64,000 nucleotides of DNA from Pelomicrobium sp. (GTDB lineage Bacteria; Pseudomonadota; Gammaproteobacteria; Burkholderiales; UBA6910): the NCBI GenBank assembly GCA_035466595.1, contig DATIUV010000072.1, positions 5,816-69,815 of the forward strand. The letters are read 5' to 3'. Under the pieces are notes generated by a model. That model saw only the letters and a program-made list of their open reading frames with translations, had not been told where the DNA came from and ran no database searches. Shown here in pieces: positions 21,098-37,731 of the stretch (positions within the stretch are counted from its first letter, which is position 1; each line of letters starts with the position of its first letter). Made by a program: the position numbers and the translations under genes.

Positions 21098-21760
21098 TCA
21101 ATCCACCACGATGACGTGCACGCGGTACGGGCCGTGGGCACCAAGCGTCACGGTCTGCTCGATATCCGCCGTTCGCGACGGCCCCGAGACCAGGTTCAAC
21201 GCCCGCGGCGGGCCGCCGCGCTCGGCGCGGACGAGCCCGAGCGCATCCTCGACGGAGTCGACGATCCGCTTCGCCGACACGACGGCGACGTGATTCTCGG
21301 GCACCAGGCTCACCGAGCCCGGCGTGCCGGCGCCGGACAGCAGCGCCAGGGTGCCCGTTTCGGCAATGCCGCAAAACGCGCCCGTGATGCCGACGAGATC
21401 CTCACCGCGCGCCCGGCGCGGCTCGACATTGATGCCGGCGGCGTCCCAACCCCAATCCGCGACTTCCGGCCAGACCACGGCGCTGGCCGGGAGCCCGGCA
21501 TCGCGCAGGTAACGCGCCACCGCTCCGGGAACCTGTTCGAGCGTTCCGACACGCTCGACGGTACATGCCATGGCCTTGGCCCGCTCCATGAATCGCTCGA
21601 GCCGATCCCAATCGGCGGGCGGCCGCGGACCGGTCGCGTGCCCTTCCATGTACGCACGCGCCTCGTCCTGGACCGCTTGCGCTGGCGGGCCGCTGCGGCC
21701 CAGCGCCTGGCGGATGCGTCCGAGAATCTGTTCGCGCGAGCTCATCGGGCTGTCAGGCAA
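21098..21760 (-). CDS. lutC: Lactate utilization protein C (LutC/YkgG, LUD domain)
   Basis: 220 aa. Begins SREQILGRIRQALG and has a C-terminal LUD-like region. It is the last gene of the lut-type operon. Confidence 0.75.
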   Translation of the reverse strand: MPDSPMSSREQILGRIRQALGRSGPPAQAVQDEARAYMEGHATGPRPPADWDRLERFMERAKAMACTVERVGTLEQVPGAVARYLRDAGLPASAVVWPEVADWGWDAAGINVEPRRARGEDLVGITGAFCGIAETGTLALLSGAGTPGSVSLVPENHVAVVSAKRIVDSVEDALGLVRAERGGPPRALNLVSGPSRTADIEQTVTLGAHGPYRVHVIVVD

Positions 21761-22700
21761 CGCGGTTGCGCGGCTCGCCGGCGACGTACGCTTCGATATT
21801 GTCGATCAGCTGGTCGGCCATCACCTGCATCGCTTCGCGGCTTGCCCACGCCACATGTGGCGTGAGAATAAAATTCGGCCGCTCGATCCCGAGCAGCGGA
21901 TTGCCTTCGCGCGGCGGCTCCACCGACAGTACGTCGAAACCGGCCCCGGCGATCCAGCCCTCGTCCAGCGCGCGCACCAGGGCGCGCTCGTCCACCAGCC
22001 CGCCACGCGCGGTGTTGATGAGGACCGCGTCCCGCTTCATGGCGCGCAACTCCTGCTCGCCGATCAGGCCGCGGGTGGCGGGCGTCAGCGGGCAGTGCAG
22101 CGAGATCACGTCGCTTTCGGCAATCACGCGGTCGAACCCCTGATAGCCGGCGCGCGGCTCCTTCACGCCCTTGCGCTCCGCGAACGCCACCCGCATGCCG
22201 AAAGCCTCGCCCAGTCGCGCCACCGCGTCGCCGAGCCCGCCGCGCCCGATGATTCCGAGCCGGCTGCCGTGCAGGTCCCGGATCGGATGACTGAACAGGC
22301 AGAAGAACGGCGCCTCCTGCCAGCGTCCCCGGCGCACGTCGTCGCGGTAGGCCAGCAGATTGCGCCGCAGCGCCAGGATCAGCGTGAAGACGTGCTCCGG
22401 CACGGCGTGCACGCCGTAACCGCGAATGTTGGAGACGACGATGCCGTGGCCGCGGCAGTACTCCAGGTCGACGTTGTCCGTTCCCGTCGCGCACACCGCG
22501 ATCTTGCGCAGCGCCGGCAGCTGCGCGAGTGCCTCCGCGCGCATCGGCACCTTGTTCACCACGGCAATGGTGACCCCCGCCAGACGCGGCAGGATTTCCG
22601 CCGGCGCGGTCAACGGGTAGTCGACCCACTCGTGCGCAAACGCCGGCCGCCGGATGTCGGCCTCGATCGTCGAGCGGTCGAGGAAGACGACGCGGTGCAT
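21753..22700 (-). CDS. D-isomer-specific 2-hydroxyacid dehydrogenase (glycerate dehydrogenase-like)
   Basis: Starts at the internal ATG 22698-22700 (MHRVVFLDRS...). Has GIIGRGGLGDAV and LINTARGGLVD...TPHVAWAS. Confidence 0.85.
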   Translation of the reverse strand: MHRVVFLDRSTIEADIRRPAFAHEWVDYPLTAPAEILPRLAGVTIAVVNKVPMRAEALAQLPALRKIAVCATGTDNVDLEYCRGHGIVVSNIRGYGVHAVPEHVFTLILALRRNLLAYRDDVRRGRWQEAPFFCLFSHPIRDLHGSRLGIIGRGGLGDAVARLGEAFGMRVAFAERKGVKEPRAGYQGFDRVIAESDVISLHCPLTPATRGLIGEQELRAMKRDAVLINTARGGLVDERALVRALDEGWIAGAGFDVLSVEPPREGNPLLGIERPNFILTPHVAWASREAMQVMADQLIDNIEAYVAGEPRNRVA

Positions 22701-22704
22701 CGCG

Positions 22705-24246
22705 TCAGCCCAGCGTCGGCATCGACAGGCTCTTGCCCGGCAGGTCGCTGTCCGCCCAGCGCGTCGTGACGACCTTGGTGCGGGTATAGAAGTGGACGCC
22801 CTCCATGCCGTGCATGTGCAGGTCGCCGAACAGCGACGACTTCCAGCCGCCGAAAGAGAAAAACGCCATCGGCACCGGAATCGGCACGTTGACGCCAACC
22901 ATCCCCACCTCGATCTCGTTCTGGAACCGCCGCGCCGCAGCGCCGGAGCGCGTGAACACCGCCGTGCCGTTGCCGTAGGGATTGCGGTTGACGAGGTCGA
23001 TCGCCTCGTCGAAATCCTTCGTCCGCACGACCACGAGCACCGGGCCGAAAATCTCGTCCTTGTACACGGTCATGTCGGGCGTGACGTGATCGATCAGCGT
23101 CGGACCAAGGAAGAAGCCGTCCTCGTGGCCCTTGACGGTGAGGTCGCGCCCGTCGACCACGAGGGTGGCGCCGGCGGCCTCGCCCTGGTCGACGTAGCCC
23201 TTCACCCGCTCCCGGTGGGCACGGCTGATGAGGGGGCCCATCTCGACGCCCTCGGCGCCACCCGGCCCGACGCTGAGCTTGCGCGCCCGCTCCGCGATCT
23301 TCTCCACCAGCGCGTCGCCGGCCTCGCCCACTGCCACCACCGCGGAGATCGCCATGCAGCGCTCGCCGGCCGAGCCGTAACCGGCGCCGATCAGCGCGTC
23401 GGCCGTGAAGTCGAGGTCCGCGTCCGGCAGCACGACGGCGTGGTTCTTCGCCCCGCCGAGCGCCTGCACCCGCTTGCCGTGCCGCGCACCGGTTTCATAG
23501 ACGTACTGCGCGATAGGCGTCGAGCCGACGAACGACACCGCCTTCACGTCCGGATGGGCGAGCAGCGCGTCGACGGCTTCCTTGTCGCCGTGCACGACGT
23601 TGAGTACCCCCTCGGGCAAGCCGGCCTCGGTGAACAGCTCGGCCATCCGCACCGAGGTCGACGGCACCTTCTCCGACGGCTTCAGCACGAACGTGTTGCC
23701 GCAGGCGATCGCCACCGGGAACATCCACAGCGGCACCATGGCGGGGAAGTTGAACGGCGTGATGCCGACGCAGACGCCGAGCGGCTGCAGCAGCGAATGG
23801 CAATCCACGCCGCGGCCGACGTCCTCGGAATGCTCGCCCTTCAGAAGATGCGGCGCACCGCTCGCGAACTCGATTACCTCGATGCCGCGCTGCACCGATC
23901 CCGCCGCATCCGCGAGCGTCTTGCCGTGCTCTTCGCTCACGAGCCGCGCCAGCTCGTCGCGGTTTGCCTCCATCAGCTCGCGGAACCGCGTGATGATGCG
24001 CGCACGGCGCAGCGGCGTCGTGGCACGCCAGCCGGGGAACGCCGCCCTCGCCGCCGCTACCGCGGCGTCGATGTCCGCCTTGCCGCACAACGGCACGCGG
24101 CGAATTGCCGCGCCGGTCGCCGGATTCGTCACCTCGCCCCAGCGCTTGGTGACCGCCGCAGCCTTCCGGCCGCCGATCCAGAGGGACACCTGCTCGAGAG
24201 AGGCCGCCGCCACGGCGGCGCCTTGGGATTTCGGTACGCTGCTCAT
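22705..24246 (-). CDS. CoA-acylating methylmalonate/malonate-semialdehyde dehydrogenase-like aldehyde dehydrogenase
   Basis: Internal ATG at 24244-24246 (MSSVPKSQG...). Has ITPFNFPAMVPLW, GERCMA and the MmsA-type C-terminus GDLHMHGMEGVHFYT. The ATGA overlaps the lutB stop. Confidence 0.85.
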   Translation of the reverse strand: MSSVPKSQGAAVAAASLEQVSLWIGGRKAAAVTKRWGEVTNPATGAAIRRVPLCGKADIDAAVAAARAAFPGWRATTPLRRARIITRFRELMEANRDELARLVSEEHGKTLADAAGSVQRGIEVIEFASGAPHLLKGEHSEDVGRGVDCHSLLQPLGVCVGITPFNFPAMVPLWMFPVAIACGNTFVLKPSEKVPSTSVRMAELFTEAGLPEGVLNVVHGDKEAVDALLAHPDVKAVSFVGSTPIAQYVYETGARHGKRVQALGGAKNHAVVLPDADLDFTADALIGAGYGSAGERCMAISAVVAVGEAGDALVEKIAERARKLSVGPGGAEGVEMGPLISRAHRERVKGYVDQGEAAGATLVVDGRDLTVKGHEDGFFLGPTLIDHVTPDMTVYKDEIFGPVLVVVRTKDFDEAIDLVNRNPYGNGTAVFTRSGAAARRFQNEIEVGMVGVNVPIPVPMAFFSFGGWKSSLFGDLHMHGMEGVHFYTRTKVVTTRWADSDLPGKSLSMPTLG

Positions 24247-25649
24247 GATCTTCCTCGCTCCGCGTAGAGTTCTCTGAAGGTCTTGCCAGCCGGCGCCGGC
24301 ATGTCGCGGCCGCCGGTCCAGCCCGACGCCAGCGGCAGCCGGTGCACCAGTCCGTCGCCGCGGCCCATCCATTTCAGCACCCGCGCGCCGATGCGCGTCG
24401 CCAGGGCGTACAGCGCGGGCTGCGTCGCCAGCCAGGCCCAGGCGCGCAGGCCCAGGCGCTCGGGCCACGGCCGCAAGCCCCGCTCCACCTGCTTCTCGCG
24501 CAGCTTGCGCATGAGATCCGGCAGCGGGATCTTGACCGGGCAGACCACCCCGCACTGGTTGCACAGGGTCGCCGCGTGGGGCAGATCGAGCGCGTTCTCC
24601 AGCCCCACGTAAGCCGGCGTCAGCACCGAGCCCATGGGACCGGGGTAGACCCAGCCGTAGGCGTGGCCGCCGACGCTCTGGTAGACCGGGCAGTGATTCA
24701 TGCAGGCGCCGCAGCGGATGCAGCGGAGCATCGGCTGCAGTTCGGTGCCCAGCAGCCGGCTGCGCCCGCCGTCGACCAGCACGATGTGGAAGTGCTCGGG
24801 CCCGTCGAGGTCGCCATCACCGCGAACGCCCGTGGTGATCGAGACGTAGTTGGTGATCGACTGGCCGGTGGCGGAGCGCGGCAGCAGGCGCAGCAGCGTC
24901 GCCAGGTCCTCCAGCGTCGGCACCACCTTCTCGATGCCCGTGATGGCGACGTGCACCCGCGGCAGCGTCGTCGTCATGCGGCCATTGCCTTCATTGGTGA
25001 CGATCAGCGTGGAGCCGGTCTCGGCGCAGTAGAAATTGGCCCCCGAGATGCCCATGTCGGCCGACAGGAAGTGCGGCCGCAGCATCTCGCGCGCCTCGCG
25101 CGTGAGCTCGGCGATATCGGTCTTGCGCGCTCGCGCGTGGACCCGCTCGAACAGGTCAGACACCTCGTCCTTGTTCTTGTGCACGACCGGCGCGACGATG
25201 TGCGACGGCGGCTCCTTGGCGAGCTGGAGGATGTATTCGCCCAGGTCGGTTTCCACCACCTCGACGCCGGCCGCCTCGAGCGCGTCGTTGAGCGCGCACT
25301 CCTCCGACACCATCGATTTCGACTTGATCGCCTTGCGAACGCCGTGCTCGCGGGCGATGTCGCAGATGATGCCGGTGGCCTCCTCATACGTTGCCGCCCA
25401 GTGCACCTTGGCGCCGCGCGCCGTGGCGTTGCGCTCGAACTCCTCGAGGTAGAAATCCAGGTTCGCCAGCGTACGGTCACGGATCGCGGCGGCGGCCTCG
25501 CGGATCTCCTCGAAGTTCGGCAGTTCCTGGATGGCGCGGGCGCGGGCGCCGACGAAGTTGGTCTGCAGCTTGGCCAGTGCCTGCTGCAGCGGCGCGTCGC
25601 GCAGCTTCTCGTGGGCGCGGGCCTTGAAGTACATGGAAGTGACCTGCAC
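24243..25649 (-). CDS. lutB: Lactate utilization protein B (LutB/YkgF, 4Fe-4S protein)
   Basis: 468 aa with CIRCGACMNHCP and CNQCGVVCP ferredoxin motifs plus a LUD domain. Confidence 0.85.
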   Translation of the reverse strand: MQVTSMYFKARAHEKLRDAPLQQALAKLQTNFVGARARAIQELPNFEEIREAAAAIRDRTLANLDFYLEEFERNATARGAKVHWAATYEEATGIICDIAREHGVRKAIKSKSMVSEECALNDALEAAGVEVVETDLGEYILQLAKEPPSHIVAPVVHKNKDEVSDLFERVHARARKTDIAELTREAREMLRPHFLSADMGISGANFYCAETGSTLIVTNEGNGRMTTTLPRVHVAITGIEKVVPTLEDLATLLRLLPRSATGQSITNYVSITTGVRGDGDLDGPEHFHIVLVDGGRSRLLGTELQPMLRCIRCGACMNHCPVYQSVGGHAYGWVYPGPMGSVLTPAYVGLENALDLPHAATLCNQCGVVCPVKIPLPDLMRKLREKQVERGLRPWPERLGLRAWAWLATQPALYALATRIGARVLKWMGRGDGLVHRLPLASGWTGGRDMPAPAGKTFRELYAERGRS

Positions 25650-25661
25650 GCGTCCCTCCGC

Positions 25662-26402
25662 TCAGTCCACCGTGTCGCCGTCCATCCCGGCGAGGACCTC
25701 GGCCACGTGCAGCACGCGGGTCTGGCGGTTGCCGCGCCGGCGCAGACGGCCCTCGATGTTGAGCATGCAGCCCAGGTCTCCCAGCACGAGCGCGTCGGCG
25801 CCGGTCGCTTCCACCGCGTCGCACTTGCGATCCGCGATGTGGGTCGAGATCTCGCCGAATTTAACCGAGAAGGTGCCACCGAAGCCGCAGCACTGCTCGG
25901 CGGCATCCATCTCGGCAATCTTGAGGCCATCCATTGTAGCGAGCAGCGCGCGTGGCTGGCGCTTCACGCCCATCTCCCGCAGCCCGGCGCAGGAATCGTG
26001 GTAGGTGATGGTACCGCGGCGACTGCCCGGCACGCGCTCGAGGCCGGCTACGTTGACCAGGAAATCGGTGAGCTCGTAGGTCCTGGCGCAAAGCCGCTCG
26101 ACGTCGGCCGCCCGCTCGGGGAAGTCGCGCAGCAGCTCGGGGTAATGGGTGCGGATCATGCCGCCGCAGGAGCCGGACGGCGCCACGACGTAGTCGCAGT
26201 CGCGAAATTCGTCCAGCAGCTTCAGCGCCAGCCGCTGGGCGCTGCGGCGGTCGCCCGAGTTGTAGCCCGGCTGGCCGCAGCAGGTCTGTCCTTTCGGCAC
26301 CACCACCTCATGGCCGGTCGCCTCCAGCAGGCGCAGCGCGGCGAAGCCGATGCGGGGCCGCATCACATCCACCAGGCAGGTGACGAACAGACCGATGCGC
26401 AC
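25662..26402 (-). CDS. lutA: Lactate utilization protein A (LutA/YkgE, CCG-domain Fe-S oxidoreductase)
   Basis: The GTG at 26400-26402 gives VRIGLFVTCLVD..., the canonical LutA N-terminus. CCG motifs are present (TCCGQPG, EQCCGFGG). No clear SD precedes the start. Confidence 0.8.
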   Translation of the reverse strand: MRIGLFVTCLVDVMRPRIGFAALRLLEATGHEVVVPKGQTCCGQPGYNSGDRRSAQRLALKLLDEFRDCDYVVAPSGSCGGMIRTHYPELLRDFPERAADVERLCARTYELTDFLVNVAGLERVPGSRRGTITYHDSCAGLREMGVKRQPRALLATMDGLKIAEMDAAEQCCGFGGTFSVKFGEISTHIADRKCDAVEATGADALVLGDLGCMLNIEGRLRRRGNRQTRVLHVAEVLAGMDGDTVD

Positions 26403-26487
26403 GGGAAGGTTGATAGACCGAAGACGATGCCGACAGTGGATCGATGATAGCACGCGGTCTGCGGGCCTCCGCCGCGGCTGCGGATGG

Positions 26488-26516
26488 TTGTCCGGAGAAA
26501 TTTCATAATGTAAAAT
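26488..26516 (+). promoter_or_regulatory. Candidate sigma-70 promoter for the iclR-family gene (TTGTCC-17-TAAAAT) enclosing the palindrome GAAATTTC
   Basis: Read from an AT-rich patch in the lutA/iclR divergent region. Confidence 0.35.
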
Positions 26517-26553
26517 TCCGCCCAATTGTTGCAGCGCAAGAGGAAACCCACCT

Positions 26554-27336
26554 GTGTCCGAGAACGGAGCCAAGTCGTCGATCCAGGTCCTGGAGCGGAT
26601 GGTGAGTCTGCTCGACGCCCTGGCCGAAAGCGCGGAGCCGCTCAACCTGAAGCAACTCGCCCTGCGCACGAGCCTGCATCCCTCCACCGCCCACCGCATT
26701 CTGGGCGTCATGGTGGAGCACCGGCTGGTCGACCGGATCGAGCCGGGCACCTACCGGCTCGGCATTCATCTGCTCGAGCTCGGCAACCTGGTAAAGAGCC
26801 GCCTCAACATTCGCGACGAGGCGCTGCCGTTCATGCAGAAGCTGCACGACCAGATCCACGAGACCGTGAATCTGTCGATCCGCCAGGGCGATGAGATGGT
26901 CTACGTCGAGCGCCTGGTGTCGAGCCGTTCGGCGATGCGCGTCGTGCACCTGATCGGCGCCCGTGCGCCGCTGCACATCACGGCGGTCGGCAAGCTGTTC
27001 CTGCTGGAGGACGGCCCGGAAAAGATGCGCGACTATGCGCAACGCACGGGATTGCCGTCGTCGACGCGCAATTCCCTCGGCACGCTGCCCAAGCTTGCCC
27101 AGGAAGTCGAGCGGGTGCGCAAGCAGGGCTACGCGTTCGACAACGAAGAGGCCGAGCGCGGCGTTTCCTGCATCGGCGCCGGCATCCGCGACGACGAGGG
27201 CCGGCTGGTCGCGGGCCTGTCGATCTCCTCACCGTCGGACCGCCTGCGCAAGGAATGGGCGCAGATGGTCAAAGACACGGCCGACGACATCTCGCACGCG
27301 ATCGGTTATCGTCCCGCGCGCATGCTGCGGCGCTAA
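26554..27336 (+). CDS. IclR family transcriptional regulator
   Basis: 260 aa. Has the HTH LNLKQLALRTSLHPSTAHRIL and an IclR effector domain (GVSCIGAGIRD). GTG start after AAGAGGAAA. Confidence 0.9.
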   Translation: MSENGAKSSIQVLERMVSLLDALAESAEPLNLKQLALRTSLHPSTAHRILGVMVEHRLVDRIEPGTYRLGIHLLELGNLVKSRLNIRDEALPFMQKLHDQIHETVNLSIRQGDEMVYVERLVSSRSAMRVVHLIGARAPLHITAVGKLFLLEDGPEKMRDYAQRTGLPSSTRNSLGTLPKLAQEVERVRKQGYAFDNEEAERGVSCIGAGIRDDEGRLVAGLSISSPSDRLRKEWAQMVKDTADDISHAIGYRPARMLRR

Positions 27337-27399: not shown

Positions 27400-28431
27400 C
27401 TAGACCCCCGCCTCGAGATAGGACACGGCGAAGCCCTCGTCGTCCGCGAGCCATTGCCGGCGCATGACCCAGCCGCCCCGGCGCGCGAGCTCGCTGAACT
27501 CCGCGAGGTCGTACTTGTAGGAGTTCTCGGTATGCAACGTTTCGCCAGGAAAGAACGAGATCGTGCGGCCCGCGAGCCGCACTTGCTGGTGGCCAATGCT
27601 CGCCAAGTGCATTTCGATTCGACTGTCGGCGGGGTTGTACAGCGCCACGTGGCGGAAGCCCGTCGGATCGAAATCGGCGCCGAGCTCGCGGTTCATCCGC
27701 TCGAGCAGATTGCGATTGAAGGCCGCCGTCACGCCGCGTGAGTCGTCGTACGCTCTCGTCATTCGATCCACCGGCTTCTTCAAATCGATGCCGATGAGCA
27801 GGCCGCCGCCGCTGCCCGTGAGCGCGGCGACCCGCGCCAGGAACGCGGTCGCGTCCGCGGGAGCGAAGTTGCTGATGCTGGAGCCGGGAAAGTACGCCAC
27901 GCGCCGCAGCGCGCGGGCATCGGCGCTGAGGGGAAGCACCAGCGGTCGCGAGTAGTCGCCCCACATTGCCTCGATCGAAAGCCAGGGATAGTCTTGCGCC
28001 AGCTGCCGGACCGAGGCTTCGAGGGCAGAGCGCGAAATCTCGATCGGCGCATAGACCGCTGGCCGCAGCGCTTCGATCAGCAACCGCGACTTCTGGCTGC
28101 TGCCGCTGCCGAACTCGATGAGGACGCATCGCCGTCCCAAACATGCGGCCATCTCGGGCGCGTGCCCGCGCATCATCGCCGTTTCCGTGCGCGTCACGGC
28201 GTATTCCGGCAGCTCGCAGATCAGGTCGAACAGACGGCTGCCTTCGGCGTCGTAGAAATACTTCGGCGGCAGCGACTTCGGCGTTGCGCCGAGCCCGTTG
28301 ACCGCGTCCTCGAGAAAGCGGTCGACGATGGGTCCGCAGTCGTGCAGGACGGCGTTCGACGCGAGCTGCACCGAGGCGAAAGGTCCGACGCGAAAGGCAT
28401 CGGCGGCGGGCGCCGCCGGGAAATCGGGCAT
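27400..28431 (-). CDS. EgtD-like L-histidine N-alpha-methyltransferase family protein (Methyltransf_33)
   Basis: Internal ATG at 28429-28431. Motifs YFYDAEGSRLFDLICELPEY, LIEFGSGSSQKS, YFPGSSISNF and TENSYKY match the EgtD family. Confidence 0.8.
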   Translation of the reverse strand: MPDFPAAPAADAFRVGPFASVQLASNAVLHDCGPIVDRFLEDAVNGLGATPKSLPPKYFYDAEGSRLFDLICELPEYAVTRTETAMMRGHAPEMAACLGRRCVLIEFGSGSSQKSRLLIEALRPAVYAPIEISRSALEASVRQLAQDYPWLSIEAMWGDYSRPLVLPLSADARALRRVAYFPGSSISNFAPADATAFLARVAALTGSGGGLLIGIDLKKPVDRMTRAYDDSRGVTAAFNRNLLERMNRELGADFDPTGFRHVALYNPADSRIEMHLASIGHQQVRLAGRTISFFPGETLHTENSYKYDLAEFSELARRGGWVMRRQWLADDEGFAVSYLEAGV

Positions 28432-28496
28432 GGTCGGGAACGGGTCCGGCTTCTTGGGCTGCCGCGGGTCGCCGGTCCCCGCGACGGAAGTTCTAT

Positions 28497-29432
28497 CTAC
28501 CCAGACACCTGGCCGGGCAGCAGGTTCGACTCCATCCAGCGCTTGATGCGGTTGGCATCGCCGATGCGCGTGAGCGTGCCCCACGAGTCCAGCAGCACGA
28601 TGATCACCTGGCGTCCGGCCACCTGCGCCTGCATGACGAGGCAGCGACCCGCCTCCCGGATGTAGCCGGTCTTGGACACGCCGATGCTCCAGGCGCGGTT
28701 GTTCACCAGCCGGTTGGAGTTGCGGAACTCGAGCGGATGACGGTAGCCGCTGGCGTCGACGGCGTATTGCGCGGTGGTCGAGTACTCGCTGATCAGCGGG
28801 TAGGTGCTGCTGGCGTGCACCAGTCGCGCCAGATCGCGCGCCGTCGAAACGTTACCGCTGTCGAGGCCGGTCGGCTCCACGAAATGCGTGTCGGCCATGC
28901 CGAGGGTCGCCGCCTTGCGGTTCATTGCGGCCACAAAGGCCGGCATGCCGCCCGGGTAAGCGCGGCCCAGCGCGGATGCGGCGCGGTTCTCGGAAGCCAT
29001 CAGCGCCAGCCGCAACAGCTCGCCGCGCGTGAGCACGGTGCCGACGCGCAGCCGCGACGCCGAATTCTTCAGCGTGTCGACGTCGTCGCTCGTGATCCGG
29101 ATCGGCTCGTCGAGAGACAACCTCGAATCGAGCACCACCATCGCCGTCATGAGCTTCGTGATGGAAGCGATGGCGGTCACCTCGGTCCCGTTCTTCTCGT
29201 AAATCGGGCTGCCGGTGGCAGCGTCGACCACGAGCGCGACGTTGGAACGGAGCTGGGGGTCTCCGCGCATCTTCTGGACCGCCGGGGATGCCGCCACCGC
29301 CTGGCTGTCCGGCGCCCGCAGGCTGAAATGCAGTTTGGGAGCAATCGCGTCGCCTTTGACCGGCGTCTGCTCGCCCGCATGAGCGGACGCTGCGCCGCAC
29401 AAAAGCGCCAAAGAAATCCAAGCGAACCGCAT
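28497..29432 (-). CDS. D-alanyl-D-alanine endopeptidase (PBP7/PbpG-like, peptidase S11)
   Basis: Internal ATG at 29430-29432 after GGGGAAG. Has a signal peptide, SITKLMT (SxxK), SENRAA (SxN) and KTGY (KTG). Confidence 0.85.
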   Translation of the reverse strand: MRFAWISLALLCGAASAHAGEQTPVKGDAIAPKLHFSLRAPDSQAVAASPAVQKMRGDPQLRSNVALVVDAATGSPIYEKNGTEVTAIASITKLMTAMVVLDSRLSLDEPIRITSDDVDTLKNSASRLRVGTVLTRGELLRLALMASENRAASALGRAYPGGMPAFVAAMNRKAATLGMADTHFVEPTGLDSGNVSTARDLARLVHASSTYPLISEYSTTAQYAVDASGYRHPLEFRNSNRLVNNRAWSIGVSKTGYIREAGRCLVMQAQVAGRQVIIVLLDSWGTLTRIGDANRIKRWMESNLLPGQVSG

Positions 29433-32544: not shown

Positions 32545-32612
32545 GTTCAGCGCGCTTCAAAAAAGAAGCCCCGGCGCCCGCCGGGGCTTTTCTTGTTTCG
32601 TGCCGCTGCCGC

Positions 32613-33848
32613 TCAGTGCCCCATGCTGGGCGTCGTGATCTTGTTCCCGTTGCTGAGCGACGTGAGGTAATACTCGATATCCGCGTACTCCGGCGCATCC
32701 GGCGGCAGCTCGTTCGCCCGGATGGCCACGCCGCACCACTGCAGCCGCTTGCGCACCGTCCACATCTGGCTCTGGCTGGTGCGATAGTACGGATGGTGGC
32801 CGAGCTGATTCTGGGAGGGACCGAGGTACTGGCCGCGGATCCACCGGTTGGCCGCCTGGCCGTGGCAGTCATTGCAGGAAAAGTTCAGCTGTCCCACCTT
32901 GCGCTCCATGAGCTGTTTGCCGTTTGCCGCGCGTGCCTTTTCCTCCGCGGTCCGGAACCGGATGTCGATCACCGCGCCGCGCGCCAGGCCGCGCAAATAG
33001 GCGGACAGGGCAATATTCTCCGTGCTTTGCATCAGGTACTCGGCCCCGGTGGTCGCCCGCGCATGGCGGGTAATGAACTCCTCGCCGTTGAGCACTTTCT
33101 TCATGCGCGGCTCGTAGTAGGGCATCTTGGCCGCCCAGGTCCGAAACGCCTTCTTCGGGTCCTGGTGGCAGGACGCGCACGACTTGCCGTTGGGGCCGGG
33201 GGTGGCGAACACCTTTTCGCCTCGATCCACCTCGCCCCAGGCCGGGTTCTCGAAGGGATCGTCCGGGTTGTACAGCGGCGTTTCCTTCTTGCGCTGGTTC
33301 GGGTCGTCGCGTACGTCCTTGAACGTCGCGGGCGTCTTAAGCGTTTTCAGATAGGCGACCATGTCCCGAATCTCGCCCTCCTTGTACAGGCCGTGCCTCC
33401 CCCAGGGCGGCATCATGGTATTGGCGTTGAAGACGCGGGCGTCGTAGATGTAGTTGTAGAGGTACCAGTCCGACCGGCCCCAGGTGCCGATGGTGGAGAG
33501 GTCGGGGCCGACGTTGCCCGGCAGCGTGGCGCCGGGGAGAATGTGGCAGGCAAGGCAGCCGCCGCCCCGGCTGCGGTCGAACGCGAGTTTCTTGCCGTTC
33601 TCCGCGTTGCCGTCCTCGATGGGCCCGTAGACTTTCTGGAACCGCTCGACCGGCGGCGACGCGTCGGTGCGCATGGTGTTGAACTTGTCCCAGTTCGCCT
33701 GGGGCCAATTCGAGTAACGGGACCATGGCTCCGGCGCCGCCGACTTCTGCGTTTCCAGCGGCGCCCGCGATCCCGCCGCAGCCGCAAACAGCCCGGGTGC
33801 GGACAATGAAACGATCGCCGCGACGACGATCTTCGATACAGTTCCCAT
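32613..33848 (-). CDS. Fused SoxX-SoxA-like triheme c-type cytochrome
   Basis: 411 aa with a signal peptide. The N-terminal SoxX-like domain has GGCLACH...NTMMPPWG. The C-terminal SoxA-like domain has CASCH, LNFSCNDCH and the conserved Cys in RKRLQWCG. Confidence 0.8.
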   Translation of the reverse strand: MGTVSKIVVAAIVSLSAPGLFAAAAGSRAPLETQKSAAPEPWSRYSNWPQANWDKFNTMRTDASPPVERFQKVYGPIEDGNAENGKKLAFDRSRGGGCLACHILPGATLPGNVGPDLSTIGTWGRSDWYLYNYIYDARVFNANTMMPPWGRHGLYKEGEIRDMVAYLKTLKTPATFKDVRDDPNQRKKETPLYNPDDPFENPAWGEVDRGEKVFATPGPNGKSCASCHQDPKKAFRTWAAKMPYYEPRMKKVLNGEEFITRHARATTGAEYLMQSTENIALSAYLRGLARGAVIDIRFRTAEEKARAANGKQLMERKVGQLNFSCNDCHGQAANRWIRGQYLGPSQNQLGHHPYYRTSQSQMWTVRKRLQWCGVAIRANELPPDAPEYADIEYYLTSLSNGNKITTPSMGH

Positions 33849-33910
33849 GGTGCCCCCTCCGTGATTAAGACGCCTGTGACCGGCAAACGAGTTCTACTGC
33901 AAAGACGGAG

Positions 33911-33942
33911 AAAAAAAAAGAGGCGCTTTATGCAAGCGCCTC
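33911..33942 (-). terminator. Intrinsic terminator (9-bp stem GAGGCGCTT/AAGCGCCTC, 5-nt loop, T9) in the leader of the fused soxXA gene
   Basis: Minus strand reads GAGGCGCTTgcataAAGCGCCTCTTTTTTTTT. It lies between the sigma-54 promoter and the ATG at 33848. Confidence 0.75.
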
Positions 33943-34004
33943 AATAGCCAAAGGAGGAGGATGAAAACAACGAGAATGCTCCCGCTGCCTTCAGTCCCTT
34001 TTAA

Positions 34005-34019
34005 GCAATCCCCATGCCA
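34005..34019 (-). promoter_or_regulatory. Sigma-54 (-24/-12) promoter TGGCATggggaTTGC
   Basis: The minus strand reads GTGGCATGGGGATTGCT, matching TGGCAC-N5-TTGCW with correct GG-to-GC spacing. It sits in an AT-rich gap. Confidence 0.65.
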
Positions 34020-34048
34020 CAAAATATCTGCTGTATTTTCAATAATCT

Positions 34049-34076
34049 AGAAAAAACGCCGGCTCGCGCCGGCGTT
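34049..34076 (-). terminator. Intrinsic terminator after soxX-soxA-lipoprotein module 1
   Basis: Minus strand reads AACGCCGGCgcgaGCCGGCGTTTTTTCT. Confidence 0.75.
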
Positions 34077-34135
34077 TCGGTTTCGTCAATTCCGCTACAT
34101 CCCGGTGCACCGTGCACCATCGTGCAGCGAAACCC

Positions 34136-34462
34136 TTAGAACGACAAGGTCGGGTATTTCTTCTGCCGTTGGCTCAAATTCGCCTGCTCGCTGGCCTTCT
34201 TGGCATTCTTGAGCACCGTTGCACTGTCACCCTTGCGCGCCGCATCTTCGGCGGCTTTGAGGGCATCCGTTGCCGTGGACCAGGAGTTACCGGACTTCTT
34301 CGCGTCCTTGACGTCCGCCTCGGCCTGCGCCAAGGCGTCCATCGCCTGCTTCGACAGGCCGCCCTGGGCGACCGGCTTGGCGGGCGGCTCCTCGAGCGCG
34401 GTGGCGCAGCCGGCCAAAATCAGCGCGGCGACCATGGCCGCAAACAGCGTCACTCGCTTCAT
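34136..34462 (-). CDS. 108-aa helical lipoprotein in the soxK position (paralog of 35936..36262)
   Basis: ATG at 34460-34462 after GGGGAGGAGG. Has the lipobox LILAGC. It shares ...KGD.A.VLKNAK.AS..A.L.....KYP with its paralog. Confidence 0.7.
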   Translation of the reverse strand: MKRVTLFAAMVAALILAGCATALEEPPAKPVAQGGLSKQAMDALAQAEADVKDAKKSGNSWSTATDALKAAEDAARKGDSATVLKNAKKASEQANLSQRQKKYPTLSF

Positions 34463-34507
34463 CGTGCCTCCTCCCCGTTCCGGATCATGTCGTGAGCTCA
34501 TGGGCGC

Positions 34508-35335
34508 TCACTTGCGGTAGATCGATGAATACATGGGCAGGCCGTTGCTCATGTACGACATGAAGTATTCGAGGTTGTTGTACTCCTCGCTGCCAGGCTT
34601 TTTCGGGTCGGCCCGCACCTGTTCCTCACAGCGCTTGTAGCGCATGTGCAGGGTGTTGAGCGAGTCGCCGCCGCGGAATACCGGCCAGTGGGTCGCCTGC
34701 CCCAGCATGGGCGACAGGATCTCGGTACGCAGCGTGTTGCCCGCATTGCCAATATGGCAGGTGGCGCAGGCGAAGTTCAGCTGGCCGTGCCGCGAGAAAT
34801 AATACTTCTTGCCTTCTTCGTACTTTTTCAGCGCACCCGGGCTGTCGACCTTGATGTTCATCTTCATGCCGTCCGACAGGGTCCGCGCGTAGGCCACCAG
34901 CAGCCCCATGGTGCGGCGGTCGCCGTAGTCGTAGGGCTCCTCGCCGTTTGCCTCCCGGCAAAGATTGACGGCGCCCTCGAAGGTAACGACTTTCCCCAGT
35001 TTCTCGTCGTAGTACGGGTAGTTGCCCGCCACCATTTTGCCGCCGTTCTGGAAGCAGTCCGCGTAGGTCTTGCCGTTCTTGAATGGCGTCTCCCATAGCT
35101 TCTTGCCCTTGTCGATGTCGACCAGAAAGGGCGGGAAGGCCATGATGCTCTCGTACTGCTGCAGCGCGTCGGGGCTGACGATCATCGCGCCGTGGATATA
35201 GTCCTCGAACTTCACGTTCGGGTACTTCTGCTTATACATCGCCACCAGTTTCTGGCGGTCCTCTTCGGGCGAGGCGTTCGCCGCCCCCGTGACAACTGCC
35301 GCAATTCCCGCCAAGGCAAGAATCCAATGCTTCAT
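34508..35335 (-). CDS. soxA: SoxA, monoheme type (L-cysteine S-thiosulfotransferase subunit), copy 1
   Basis: 275 aa with a signal peptide, a single heme site LNFACATCH and the conserved ligand Cys in RYKRCEEQ. The first heme site is degenerate (YADCFQNGG). Confidence 0.85.
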   Translation of the reverse strand: MKHWILALAGIAAVVTGAANASPEEDRQKLVAMYKQKYPNVKFEDYIHGAMIVSPDALQQYESIMAFPPFLVDIDKGKKLWETPFKNGKTYADCFQNGGKMVAGNYPYYDEKLGKVVTFEGAVNLCREANGEEPYDYGDRRTMGLLVAYARTLSDGMKMNIKVDSPGALKKYEEGKKYYFSRHGQLNFACATCHIGNAGNTLRTEILSPMLGQATHWPVFRGGDSLNTLHMRYKRCEEQVRADPKKPGSEEYNNLEYFMSYMSNGLPMYSSIYRK

Positions 35336-35406
35336 CTTTTCCTCCGTAAAACGTCGTCACCGCCCGTCGCGGCGGGCGCCGGCTGGCCGGATCGCCAACG
35401 GGCGCG

Positions 35407-35793
35407 CTACAAGCCGTGCACGAAATCCGTGATCAGGTCAATTTCCTTGTCCGTCAGGATTCCATGGACGCCGAACGGCGGCATGGACGTTTCCGGATTG
35501 TTGCGCATCGGGTCGGCGATCTGCTGGCGCAACTTGGCCCGGTCGGGAAACCGGGCCTTCATTGCGATCAGCGGTGGGCCGATGTTGGCCGCCGTGTAGT
35601 TCTTGGACGTGGGCGACAGCGTTTCCTGCAGCGTGGGAAACGAATGGCACGCCATGCAGTTGCCCTTGCGGTTGTTGAAGGCCAGGTCCTTGCCGGTAGG
35701 CTCCTTGGCGGTCTGGGCCGACGCGGCAGCCGAGATCGCCAAGAAACCCATGGCAATGGCAGGCCCCAGCCAGCGCTTGCGCGTTGGGGTCAT
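35407..35793 (-). CDS. soxX: SoxX monoheme cytochrome c, copy 1
   Basis: 128 aa with a signal peptide and RKGNCMACH...SMPPFG. Confidence 0.85.
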   Translation of the reverse strand: MTPTRKRWLGPAIAMGFLAISAAASAQTAKEPTGKDLAFNNRKGNCMACHSFPTLQETLSPTSKNYTAANIGPPLIAMKARFPDRAKLRQQIADPMRNNPETSMPPFGVHGILTDKEIDLITDFVHGL

Positions 35794-35867
35794 CGCTCCT
35801 CCTCGTGGTAGTTATCGTGAGCGGCGCTTATTCTGCCATGCAGCCGAATGTTGTAAATACGGGAGCG

Positions 35868-35903
35868 AAAAAATTGAAAAAGGGGCGGCCCAGAGGCCGC
35901 CCC
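35868..35903 (-). terminator. Intrinsic terminator after soxX-soxA-lipoprotein module 2
   Basis: Minus strand reads GGGGCGGCCtctgGGCCGCCCCTTTTTCAATTTTTT. Confidence 0.75.
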
Positions 35904-35935
35904 TTTTCCTGCCGAACCCGAAACCGCCGCACCCG

Positions 35936-36262
35936 TCAGTAGGTAGTCAGGGGATACTTCGTTTGCATAGCCCCGAGCTTGGCATGGTCACTCGCGATCT
36001 TGGCGTTCTTGAGCACGGCCGCATTGTCGCCCTTCTTCGCCGCCTCCTCGGCCTGCTTCAGTGCCTTGTCTGCCGTCGTCCACAGGGCGGCTTCCTTTTT
36101 CTTCGTTGCTGCGACCTCGGCACGGGCCTGTTCCAGGGCAGCACTCGCCTCGCTCGAGAGGCCAACCATCGGTTCCGCGGTGGGCTTGACCGTCGCCCCG
36201 CCCTCACACCCGGCCAGAACCACCGCGGCCAAGGCGGCGGCGGCCAGCATCTTCAAGTCCAT
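35936..36262 (-). CDS. 108-aa helical lipoprotein in the soxK position (paralog of 34136..34462)
   Basis: ATG after GAGGAGG. Has the lipobox VVLAGC. Its length and C-terminal motif are conserved with the paralog. Confidence 0.7.
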   Translation of the reverse strand: MDLKMLAAAALAAVVLAGCEGGATVKPTAEPMVGLSSEASAALEQARAEVAATKKKEAALWTTADKALKQAEEAAKKGDNAAVLKNAKIASDHAKLGAMQTKYPLTTY

Positions 36263-36311
36263 GGGTATCCTCCTCGTTATCCGTGACTGATTCCGCTTTT
36301 CCGGTCCCGCG

Positions 36312-37142
36312 TCACTTGCGGAACACGGAGGCCTGCATCTCGAGGCCGTTACTCAGGTAGCTGTGGAAGTATTCGAGGTCGTTGAACTCGGTGCTTCCGG
36401 GCTTGAGAGGCACCGCGCGAATCCGGCTCAGGCAGCCGCGATAACGGTCCTGCAGGGTCACGAGCCGGCTGCCGCCCCGGAATACCGGCCAATGGGTCGC
36501 CTGACCAATCGCCGGGGAAAGGTATTCCGTCCGCACGATCTGGCCCGCCCCCTGGATGTGGCAGCTCGCGCACGAAAAATTGAGCTGGCCATGGCGGGTG
36601 AAGAAGAACTTCTTACCCCGCTCGAACGCCTCCTGCGCGGCCGGCGACTGGACCTTGATGTTCATCTTCATGCCGTCCGACAGGGTCCGGGCGTAGGCGG
36701 TCAGCACCCCCATCGTCTTCATGTCGTTGTAGGCCAGCGGCGCCTCCCCGTTGGCCTCGCGGCAGGCGTTCAGGGCCATTTCGAAGGTGACGACCTTGCC
36801 GGCCTTGTCGTCGAAGTAGGGATAGTTCCCGGCCACCATCCTGCCGCCATTGGGGAAGCAGCCGGCGTAGGTCTTGCCGTTCTTGAACGGCATCTCCCAC
36901 ATTTTTTTGCCCTTCTCGATGTCGCTCACATAGGGCGGGAAGTCCATGATGGCCTCATACTGGCCCATCGAATCTTCGCTGAAGTTCAGCGCGCCATGGA
37001 CGTAGTCTTCGAGCTTGATCTCCGGGTAGCGCTTCTGGAAATACTGCAGCAGGGCCTGACGATCCTGTTCCGGAGCCGCGACGGCGGCGGCCGGTGCCAG
37101 AACCAAAGCCAGGGCGGCAAGAGCCGTTATCAGCCTTGTCAT
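36312..37142 (-). CDS. soxA: SoxA, monoheme type, copy 2
   Basis: 276 aa. Has LNFSCASCH and RYRGCLSR and is collinear with copy 1 throughout. Confidence 0.85.
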   Translation of the reverse strand: MTRLITALAALALVLAPAAAVAAPEQDRQALLQYFQKRYPEIKLEDYVHGALNFSEDSMGQYEAIMDFPPYVSDIEKGKKMWEMPFKNGKTYAGCFPNGGRMVAGNYPYFDDKAGKVVTFEMALNACREANGEAPLAYNDMKTMGVLTAYARTLSDGMKMNIKVQSPAAQEAFERGKKFFFTRHGQLNFSCASCHIQGAGQIVRTEYLSPAIGQATHWPVFRGGSRLVTLQDRYRGCLSRIRAVPLKPGSTEFNDLEYFHSYLSNGLEMQASVFRK

Positions 37143-37215
37143 TTCATGCCTCCTAATCGGTAACCGGGCCGAGGGAGCGCGGCGGCGTCGCCTCGTGCCA
37201 CAAGCGGTCGGTGGA

Positions 37216-37611
37216 TCACAGACCGTAGATGAAGTCGGTGATCAGATCGATTTCCTTTTCGGACAGGATCTGATGCTTGCCGAACGGCGGCATCAAAGTG
37301 TCCGGATTGGTCGTCATCGGATCCCAGATCTGGGCGCGGAGCTTGCCCTTGTCCGGGTACCGCTTGTTCATCGCGATGATCGGGGGACCGATCGTGGCGG
37401 CCGTGTAATTCTTGGAAACGGACGAGCGCGTGGTCGCCAGGGTCGGGAACTGGTGGCAGGCCAGGCAGTTGCCCTTGCGGCGGTCAAACGTCAGATCCTG
37501 GCCGGTAGGCTCCTTTGCCTTTTCAGCTGCTGAAACCGCAACAGGAGCCGATGCAACGGCCATCAAGGCGGCAACCCCGGCAGTGGCCAGGGCGAAACGG
37601 GAAGTTCGCAT
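37216..37611 (-). CDS. soxX: SoxX monoheme cytochrome c, copy 2
   Basis: 131 aa. Has RKGNCLACH...LMPPFG and is collinear with copy 1. Confidence 0.85.
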   Translation of the reverse strand: MRTSRFALATAGVAALMAVASAPVAVSAAEKAKEPTGQDLTFDRRKGNCLACHQFPTLATTRSSVSKNYTAATIGPPIIAMNKRYPDKGKLRAQIWDPMTTNPDTLMPPFGKHQILSEKEIDLITDFIYGL

Positions 37612-37698
37612 GGATGCTCCTCCAGGAGTCTGATATAAATGGATTTTTATTTATTTTTGTTCTTGTTCTTCAGAATCTAGCGGGTATGGCATCGGCGG

Positions 37699-37731
37699 GC
37701 CAATAAAAATCGTCTATTGGCGCATAGCCAA
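37699..37731. promoter_or_regulatory. Overlapping inverted repeats GCCAATA-N9-TATTGGC and TTGGC-N5-GCCAA upstream of sox module 2
   Basis: Read directly from the sequence, 88-120 nt upstream of the soxX copy 2 ATG and next to an AT-rich stretch (37630-37680). Confidence 0.4.

Follow-up and report, generated by a model that had tools for sequence, protein, structure and literature searches.

Three SoxAX-type units without adjacent carrier genes at one locus of Pelomicrobium sp.

SoxAX (L-cysteine S-thiosulfotransferase) is the enzyme that attaches thiosulfate oxidatively to the carrier cysteine of SoxY, with two electrons passing to cytochrome c. The question raised by the locus described here is what three SoxAX-type units are doing side by side in a stretch of DNA that encodes neither the SoxYZ carrier nor SoxB. 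The locus lies at positions 32613-37611 (minus strand) of a stretch of 64,000 nucleotides from Pelomicrobium sp. (assembly GCA_035466595.1, contig DATIUV010000072.1), which was analysed over its whole length of 64 kb and is referred to as the window. The answer that is considered probable is that the locus encodes three intact periplasmic SoxAX isoenzymes in separate units, grown by accretion and serving a SoxYZ and a SoxB encoded elsewhere.

Gene identity at the locus

Two of the units were found to be modules of the same build (soxX, soxA and a gene for a small lipoprotein), and the third is a single fused soxXA gene. This layout had been read from the letters of the sequence in an earlier note, and it was recovered in full, with all seven open reading frames (ORFs) intact and on the minus strand. 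Module 1 consists of soxX1 (37216..37611, 131 amino acids), soxA1 (36312..37142, 276 amino acids) and the gene of the soxK-like lipoprotein K1 (35936..36262, 108 amino acids), which starts 50 nucleotides after soxA1. Module 2 consists of soxX2 (35407..35793, 128 amino acids), soxA2 (34508..35335, 275 amino acids) and the gene of K2 (34136..34462), which starts 46 nucleotides after soxA2; the soxX and soxA coordinates of both modules are those of the ORF list. K2 was read as 108 amino acids from MKRV, inside a longer ORF that extends up to 34501, and its orthologue in an independent assembly of the same region (L006) was likewise called as 108 amino acids. The fused soxXA gene (32613..33848) encodes 411 amino acids with three CxxCH motifs. 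Modules 1 and 2 form a collinear DNA repeat with a period of 1800–1809 bp and a nucleotide identity of 70–73%. The two sets of paralogs had been described as two-thirds identical, which is right for SoxX (X1/X2, 65%) and SoxA (A1/A2, 63%) and generous for K (K1/K2, 50%). The flanks are unrelated genes, as also described, encoding an MBL-fold protein, an EEP-family protein and NadA. A protein annotated as ‘SoxA [Pelomicrobium sp.]’ in a TPA metagenome-assembled genome (MAG) is 100% identical to SoxA1.

The check proposed for the five cytochromes was their scoring against profile models of the SoxA and SoxX families, and all of them exceeded the NCBIfam equivalog cut-offs, which are 61 bits for SoxX (TIGR04485) and 110 bits for SoxA (TIGR04484). 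X1 and X2 scored 72.8 and 74.2 bits, A1 and A2 scored 213.6 and 215.5 bits, and the fused protein passed both models, with 162.5 bits for SoxA and 75.1 bits for SoxX. The Pfam domain PF21342 (SoxA/TsdA cytochrome c domain) was matched by A1, A2 and the fused protein at 76–84 bits. The five cytochromes are members of the SoxX and SoxA families. Signal peptides were present in all of the cytochromes of the locus. SoxX1 has a Sec signal peptide, the heme motif CLACH and the methionine ligand in MPPFG, and SoxX2 has the heme motif CMACH and the same MPPFG ligand, both being monoheme c-type cytochromes; across the locus, the methionine-ligand motifs of SoxX are MPPFG or MPPWG and the heme motifs CLACH or CMACH. 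The active-site heme of SoxA1 is bound at C191ASC194H195, with the distal ligand Cys237 and Arg242 nearby. The first CxxCH has been lost from SoxA1, with AGCF standing where the structure 1H31 has CADCH, and Cys95 and Cys127 are retained at the sites where type I SoxA binds heme 1; SoxA2 retains all five invariant cysteines. Since each of them has a single CxxCH, A1 and A2 are monoheme proteins. SoxA1, like the other SoxA parts of the locus, can be aligned to the solved structures 1H31 and 2C1D, and the alignment extends to the distal cysteine that ligates the active-site heme. The residues named for SoxA1 did not vary in 122 homologs, and in alignments of about 120 homologs per type the same was true of each cysteine and histidine that binds heme, of the methionine of SoxX, and of the cysteine ligand of SoxA with its neighbouring arginine.

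The fused protein has its SoxX domain at residues ~80–170 (C98LACH, Met146) and a diheme SoxA domain at residues ~200–411 (C224ASCH, C325NDCH, Cys372, Arg377). It matches both SoxA and SoxX chains in the PDB, and the region of Cys372 aligns with the cysteine ligand of 1H31 and 2C1D. Its heme and ligand residues were invariant in an alignment of 121 homologs. The family is a large one (1692 proteins at E ≤ 1e-10); the best 120 of the 1692 are all 398–448 amino acids long and 50–91% identical, and they include proteins of Beggiatoa, Reyranella and Bradyrhizobium. The proteins from Beggiatoa are 52–53% identical over 98–99% of the length. Given that every heme and ligand residue is invariant in about 120 homologs per type, all three units look catalytically competent, and each would be expected to act as a SoxAX enzyme. 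A side observation concerns the additional heme of the fused proteins. In the 121 fused homologs, an invariant Arg261-His262 stands at the position of the cysteine that ligates heme 1 in type I SoxA (1H31, 2C1D), which suggests that heme 1 of this family may be His/His-ligated and not His/Cys-ligated.

The small gene had been claimed to occupy the position of soxK, and it does lie directly after soxA in both modules. Type III SoxAX is composed of three subunits, and SoxK stabilises the complex (PMC4891895). Both K1 and K2 have a LAGC lipobox, and the match to SAXB (NF052674, ‘SoxAX-binding protein’, the NCBIfam model of SoxK) spans nearly their full length at scores below the cut-off of 95 bits. 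For K2 it was clearly the top match (41.9 bits, E 1.1e-10), and for K1 (20.3 bits) it came only marginally ahead of a lipoprotein model. Similarly, SAXB was matched by nine of 11 members of the K family from related loci, all of them below the cut-off. K1 is 50% identical to a gene of 99 amino acids lying between soxA and soxB in the related locus L002, and the family fills the slot between soxA and soxB in the soxYZ-X-A-K-B clusters of L002 and L013, at 44–51% identity. The position directly 3' of soxA is occupied in the same way in L002, L013, L004, L007, L082, L083 and L085. K is probably a distant SoxK-like subunit, homologous to SoxK, as judged from these matches and from gene position. 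The lipobox suggests that a SoxXAK complex would probably be tethered to a membrane. In the family alignment, the lipobox cysteine is the only cysteine of K, so the protein cannot serve as a carrier. Units 1 and 2 would accordingly be described as type III-like complexes, in which SoxX and SoxA have one heme each (that of the SoxA active site being ligated by Cys) and are joined by a SoxK/SAXB-like lipoprotein, and the third unit as a single-chain triheme SoxX-SoxA fusion of the kind found in Halorhodospira and Beggiatoa. Two further observations concern the K family at large. It occurs in two forms, as lipoproteins (LAGC or VSGC lipobox) and as soluble proteins with an ordinary signal peptide of the signal-peptidase-I type (AYA/AE), the latter in L082, L083 and L085. 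Additionally, the standalone soxXA loci of Thiobacillus-like genomes also have a SoxK-like gene downstream of soxA.

Transcription units and history of the site

The surroundings of the locus were compared with those of four relatives that share its flanking genes. L006 is an independent ENA assembly with flanks 99–100% identical and the same seven-gene layout. L007 is a JGI contig from a different species (flanks 86–92% identical, cyclase 67%), in which an orthologue of module 1 (A1, 85%) is followed by a second soxX, 68% identical to X2 and situated at the contig end. L004 (GCA_049322755.1; flanks 83–95%, cyclase 73%, EgtD 76%) carries one soxXAK module and the fused gene (87%), and the more distant L088 (GCA_016183615.1; flanks 51–81%) carries the fused gene only (74%). 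The site is conserved as aspS-nudix-nadA-cyclase-EEP on one side and MBL-ABC on the other, and L088 keeps the synteny from aspS through nudix, nadA, cyclase and EEP to MBL.

Each of the two modules had been claimed to end in its own intrinsic terminator, giving, together with the fused gene, three separate transcription units, and the claim was borne out at the level of sequence by three terminators and by promoter-like blocks conserved in relatives. The terminator of module 1 (35876..35909, minus strand) has a 15-bp stem followed by a T-run, and its position is kept in L007. That of module 2 (34051..34076, minus strand) was read from the sequence as a GC-rich stem of 9 bp, AACGCCGGC, the loop GCGA, the returning stem GCCGGCGTT and T6; the terminator scan had scored just five of the pairs of this hairpin (34076-34051). 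A further hairpin with T9, at 33942-33920, does not end module 2 and belongs to the separate small-RNA-like element treated below. The fused gene is followed by a terminator with a 10-bp stem (32566..32589, minus strand). Module 2 is preceded by a sigma-70-like promoter (35830..35857, minus strand) composed of TTTACA, a 16-nucleotide spacer and TG-n-CAGAAT. Both hexamers are kept in L007, where the block before soxX2 (TTTACA/TTTGCA followed by TG-n-CAGAAT) likewise comes after the terminator. Upstream of soxX1 (37674..37710, minus strand), an A/T-rich stretch is followed by TTGGCC, an 18-nucleotide spacer and TAGATT, and this block is kept in L007 and in part in L004. As a prediction from sequence, separate transcription of the three SoxAX units is well supported by these elements. 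The separate promoters and terminators suggest, in turn, that the units would be differentially regulated, the three isoenzymes being expressed under different conditions. The hairpin after the fused gene was also noted for its symmetry, being a perfect, bidirectional structure (32561-32594) with T-runs on both strands and common to the convergent MBL-fold gene.

The number of soxXAK cassettes beside the fused gene at the syntenic site was found to be zero in L088, one in L004 and two in the window, L006 and L007, which indicates that the fused gene is an old resident of the site. The comparison shows the fused soxXA as the ancestral occupant and the soxXAK cassettes as later additions. The accretion began with the lone fused gene, beside which one soxXAK cassette and then a second, divergent one were added. 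The fused gene is also a lone gene amid unrelated neighbours in L005, L088 and L090/L091. In a neighbour-joining tree computed without support values, A1 and A2 were not sisters: A1 grouped with L007, near the clade of soxYZ-X-A-K-B clusters, and A2 stood on a separate deep branch. In L004, the SoxA shares 65% identity with A1 and likewise with A2, the K protein shares about 50% with each of K1 and K2, and the single SoxX shares 81% with X2. An origin of the L004 module by recombination between modules 1 and 2 was rejected, as a sliding-window comparison placed it about equally far from the two from end to end. A recent arrival of the cassettes by horizontal transfer was also rejected, as their overall G+C content (GC) and the G+C content at third codon positions (GC3) resemble those of the flanks, and neither tRNA genes nor mobile-element signatures were found at the cassette borders (tRNA genes were absent from the whole window). 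Taken together, the comparison points to an old and variable cassette region rather than to a recent duplication. As a separate observation, the soxA-soxK segment (window 34136-37142 against L004 8529-9723) behaves as a fast-changing or exchanged cassette, with at least three variants among close relatives.

The same comparison gives the strongest competitor of the isoenzyme reading its footing. According to this alternative, there is no division of labour: the additional soxXAK cassettes are spares that came by horizontal acquisition or duplication, a single unit is of physiological importance, and the rest are neutral or on their way out. It would fit the variation in cassette number among close relatives (zero, one or two) in spite of conserved synteny, and the turnover suggested by SoxA and K proteins that are only 65% and 50% identical between relatives whose flanking proteins are 83–95% identical. 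Nevertheless, none of the seven ORFs is disrupted and no catalytic residue has been lost, and the layout with two modules persists in L007, a second species-level relative (A1, 85%), together with its terminator and promoter blocks. The agreement of cassette GC3 with the flanks implies that the cassettes are long-resident, which also speaks against dispensable spares. Redundancy of this kind is judged unlikely, though it is the most probable of the alternatives.

Between K2 and the fused soxXA, a candidate small RNA was recognised (33912..34019, minus strand), lying 72 nucleotides upstream of the start codon of the fused gene. It is composed of a sigma-54-type motif, TGGCATGGGGATTGCT (34019-34004), a stable 5' hairpin, an unpaired CAUCCUCCUCCUUUGG and the terminator at 33942-33920 with U9; the unpaired CAUCCUCCUCCUUUGG stretch is anti-Shine-Dalgarno-like. 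The motif is the sole match to TGGCAY-N5-TTGCW in 64 kb, where 0.14 would be expected by chance, and the window showed no gene for a sigma-54 activator. The candidate folds with a z-score of -4.5. Between the window and L004, the element is conserved at about 97% identity amid intergenic DNA that has diverged. Neither L088 nor Beggiatoa has it upstream of the fused gene, and its core gave no match in an exact-pattern scan of JGI metagenome contigs. The Rfam matches were below threshold, namely suhB/mmgR (29.6 bits, threshold 41) and Burkholderia ncS16 (27.2 bits, threshold 48). Alternatively, the element may act as a leader or attenuator for the fused soxXA. An ORF of 30 amino acids on the plus strand inside the element, preceded by a perfect Shine-Dalgarno sequence, was rejected as a coding gene, as an indel of one nucleotide in L004 breaks its frame in DNA that is still about 97% identical.

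The carrier and the competing explanations

The statement that SoxYZ, SoxB and SoxCD are missing from all 64 kb was confirmed by two kinds of search. No soxY, soxZ or soxB was found in the window by tblastn with two sets of betaproteobacterial SoxY/Z/B queries (best E ~0.7); betaproteobacterial SoxB proteins are 72–96% identical to one another. Pfam scans of the other coding-like ORFs of the window gave no SoxY, SoxZ, 5'-nucleotidase/SoxB, Mo-oxidoreductase/SoxC or other sulfur-oxidation family. Similarly, neither soxYZ nor soxB lies within 10 kb in L004, L006 and L088, the syntenic relatives; counted over the fused gene, four contexts besides the window lack both at that distance. The MBL-fold neighbour was considered as a SoxH or a persulfide dioxygenase and rejected, with scores of 46 bits for the SoxH-related model (cut-off 280) and 52 bits for GloB (cut-off 201) and no signal peptide.

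Two readings had been offered by the earlier note for a locus in this state, isoenzymes for a distant SoxYZ or SoxAX-like cytochromes recruited to another acceptor, and the first was favoured by the evidence gathered, with nothing positive found in support of the second. The nearest homologs of the module proteins (65–71% identity) lie in soxXYZAB or soxYZ-X-A-K-B clusters. In Beggiatoa leptomitoformis, a single ‘soxAX’ gene lies apart from soxB and soxYZ and is induced together with soxB and soxY (PMC11507549), and the fused triheme SoxXA is the only SoxAX form in the thiosulfate-using species of Halorhodospira (PMC8877833). On the strength of these sequence relatives and precedents, and of the invariant residues described above, each of the three enzymes would attach thiosulfate oxidatively to SoxY of a distant SoxYZ, with SoxB also encoded elsewhere. 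As to the physiology of the genus, the type species P. methylotrophicum is reportedly lithoautotrophic on reduced sulfur compounds, and it is called ‘lithoautotrophic and methylotrophic’ in the title of its description (Extremophiles 2020).

Several points weigh against this answer. Neither soxYZ nor soxB has been seen for this organism, the sequence covered being the 64-kb window. With 20 and 42 bits, K1 and K2 stay well under the 95 bits required by the SAXB equivalog model. The case for differential regulation consists of the separate promoters and terminators only. Finally, the tree behind the placement of A1 and A2 has no support values, and the second module may stem from an old duplication in situ followed by divergence.

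A function independent of the carrier would dispose of the missing genes altogether. The lineage would in this case be without SoxYZ and SoxB, and the cytochromes would oxidise thiosulfate or some other sulfane compound onto another thiol acceptor, or form tetrathionate in the manner of TsdA. The empty searches of the window and of the four other fused-gene contexts are what such a function would predict, and SoxA and TsdA do have a common fold and a mechanism based on a Cys-ligated heme (PF21342). An enzyme of the TsdA type would be expected to be diheme and to resemble TsdA more closely than SoxA; both A1 and A2 have a single heme, without the second one that TsdA needs, all three SoxAs pass the SoxA equivalog model and the SoxX proteins pass theirs. 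The PDB matches of A1, A2 and the fused protein at E ≤ 1e-3 were SoxA and SoxX chains only, with no TsdA chain among them. K, with its sole cysteine in the lipobox, cannot take the place of the carrier. In addition, the close monoheme homologs lie within full sox clusters, and in Beggiatoa, where the fused family is at work, soxYZ and soxB are encoded elsewhere. A carrier-independent function is accordingly considered very improbable. Just as little credence is given to its most elaborate form, in which a Pelomicrobium lineage without SoxYZ and SoxB would use rapidly changing, membrane-tethered SoxA-SoxK cassettes and the fused SoxXA to load thiosulfate or another sulfane sulfur onto another acceptor, with a small RNA of the sigma-54 type selecting the unit to be translated. 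As for an assembly artefact, a chimeric join of strain variants would be conceivable in a MAG with paralogous repeats, but is effectively ruled out by the same seven-gene layout in the independent ENA assembly L006 (99–100% protein identity), by the JGI contig L007 from another species, where module 1 is followed by a second soxX, and by a DNA identity between the modules (70–73%) that is too low for strain variants.

Beyond the sox locus, the Pfam content of the window comprises TRAP transporters, lactate-utilisation genes, dehydrogenases, EgtD, a D-Ala-D-Ala carboxypeptidase and an ABC exporter, as well as the MBL-fold and EEP-family proteins, NadA, AspS, UvrA, SSB and the alpha and spc ribosomal operons. 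The EgtD equivalog (L-histidine N-alpha-methyltransferase of ergothioneine synthesis; 27400-28584, minus strand) scored 375 bits against a cut-off of 291 and adjoins the D-Ala-D-Ala carboxypeptidase gene; no EgtB-like gene was found among its scanned neighbours. At 21098-26750 (minus strand) lies a lactate-utilisation set resembling LutA, LutB and LutC (CCG, LUD plus 4Fe-4S, and LUD domains). It is interleaved with genes of an aldehyde dehydrogenase and a 2-hydroxyacid dehydrogenase, stands beside a regulator of the IclR family and keeps its synteny in L004 and L006.

The understanding of the Sox pathway is not altered by this locus. Its value would be that of a small natural setting in which to study why several SoxAX isoenzymes are maintained in sulfur oxidisers, with two architectures in one place under separate promoters and from zero to two extra cassettes among relatives. 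Three points may be useful in practice: the fused triheme SoxXA is, as a rule, encoded alone, SoxK-like proteins can be lipoproteins or soluble, and a soxXA locus without soxYZB should not be taken as a missing pathway when MAGs are annotated.

Comparison with known systems

The frequency of such arrangements was estimated from the closest relatives of SoxA. A search of genome contigs with SoxA1 as the query gave 80 loci, with a best identity of 71% and none from Pelomicrobium, and the neighbourhood counts were made on a sample of 52 species-representative loci with the closest SoxA relatives and at least 2.5 kb on both sides. Genes for SoxY/Z and SoxB adjoined soxA in 43 of the 52, soxB only was present in four, and neither was present in five, which were organised as soxXAK, as soxXA or as soxXAK with a fused gene. 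With about 10% of the sample (5/52) in this condition, a soxXA(K) locus without adjacent soxYZ and soxB is a known minority state. Two soxA genes in one locus were not encountered among the 52, and the doubling of the module is specific to this lineage within the sample. The presentation of the locus as unusual in the earlier note was overstated, considering that split loci are textbook matter (PMC8877833), that roughly one in ten related loci lacks the carrier genes and that tandem soxXA has been published (PMC6382920). In the Chromatiaceae and Ectothiorhodospiraceae, split sox loci are the standard, with soxAX apart from soxYZB or soxAXB apart from soxYZ (PMC8877833).

The closest published counterpart of the tandem units is that of Thioalkalivibrio sulfidiphilus and Tv. 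denitrificans, in which soxXA is repeated four times in a row (Berben et al. 2019, PMC6382920); these arrays were compared by their published description and not by sequence. As in the window, several soxXA units stand head to tail and apart from soxB, and the hosts use a truncated Sox system. Unlike the window, the arrays belong to Gammaproteobacteria, and neither a SoxK-like gene per unit nor a fused triheme gene is described for them (PMC6382920). The two modules resemble the type III SoxXAK of Allochromatium vinosum and Chlorobaculum tepidum (SoxK = SAXB) in having a monoheme SoxA, a monoheme SoxX and a small gene directly after soxA. Additionally, soxYZ is found at a separate locus in the Chromatiaceae (PMC4891895, PMC8877833), as none adjoins the soxXAK of the window. 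They differ from the A. vinosum and C. tepidum systems in that the K proteins are distant SAXB relatives with a lipobox, soxB is not adjacent and two copies stand in tandem. The fused gene shares with those of Halorhodospira and Beggiatoa the order of its domains, with SoxX N-terminal to a diheme SoxA, and its location away from soxYZ and soxB, whereas its position beside two unfused SoxXAK units and immediately downstream of a small-RNA-like element sets it apart. No publication was found that describes type III cassettes next to a fused gene. The closest relatives of both modules (SoxA, 57–71% identity) are the betaproteobacterial soxXYZAB and soxYZ-X-A-K-B clusters of Sulfuriferula, Thiobacillus and uncultured Burkholderiales, which mostly have soxYZ and soxB adjacent (43 of the 52), in contrast to the window, where these genes are missing and the module is doubled. 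The locus of the window differs from the known systems in its arrangement, not in kind.

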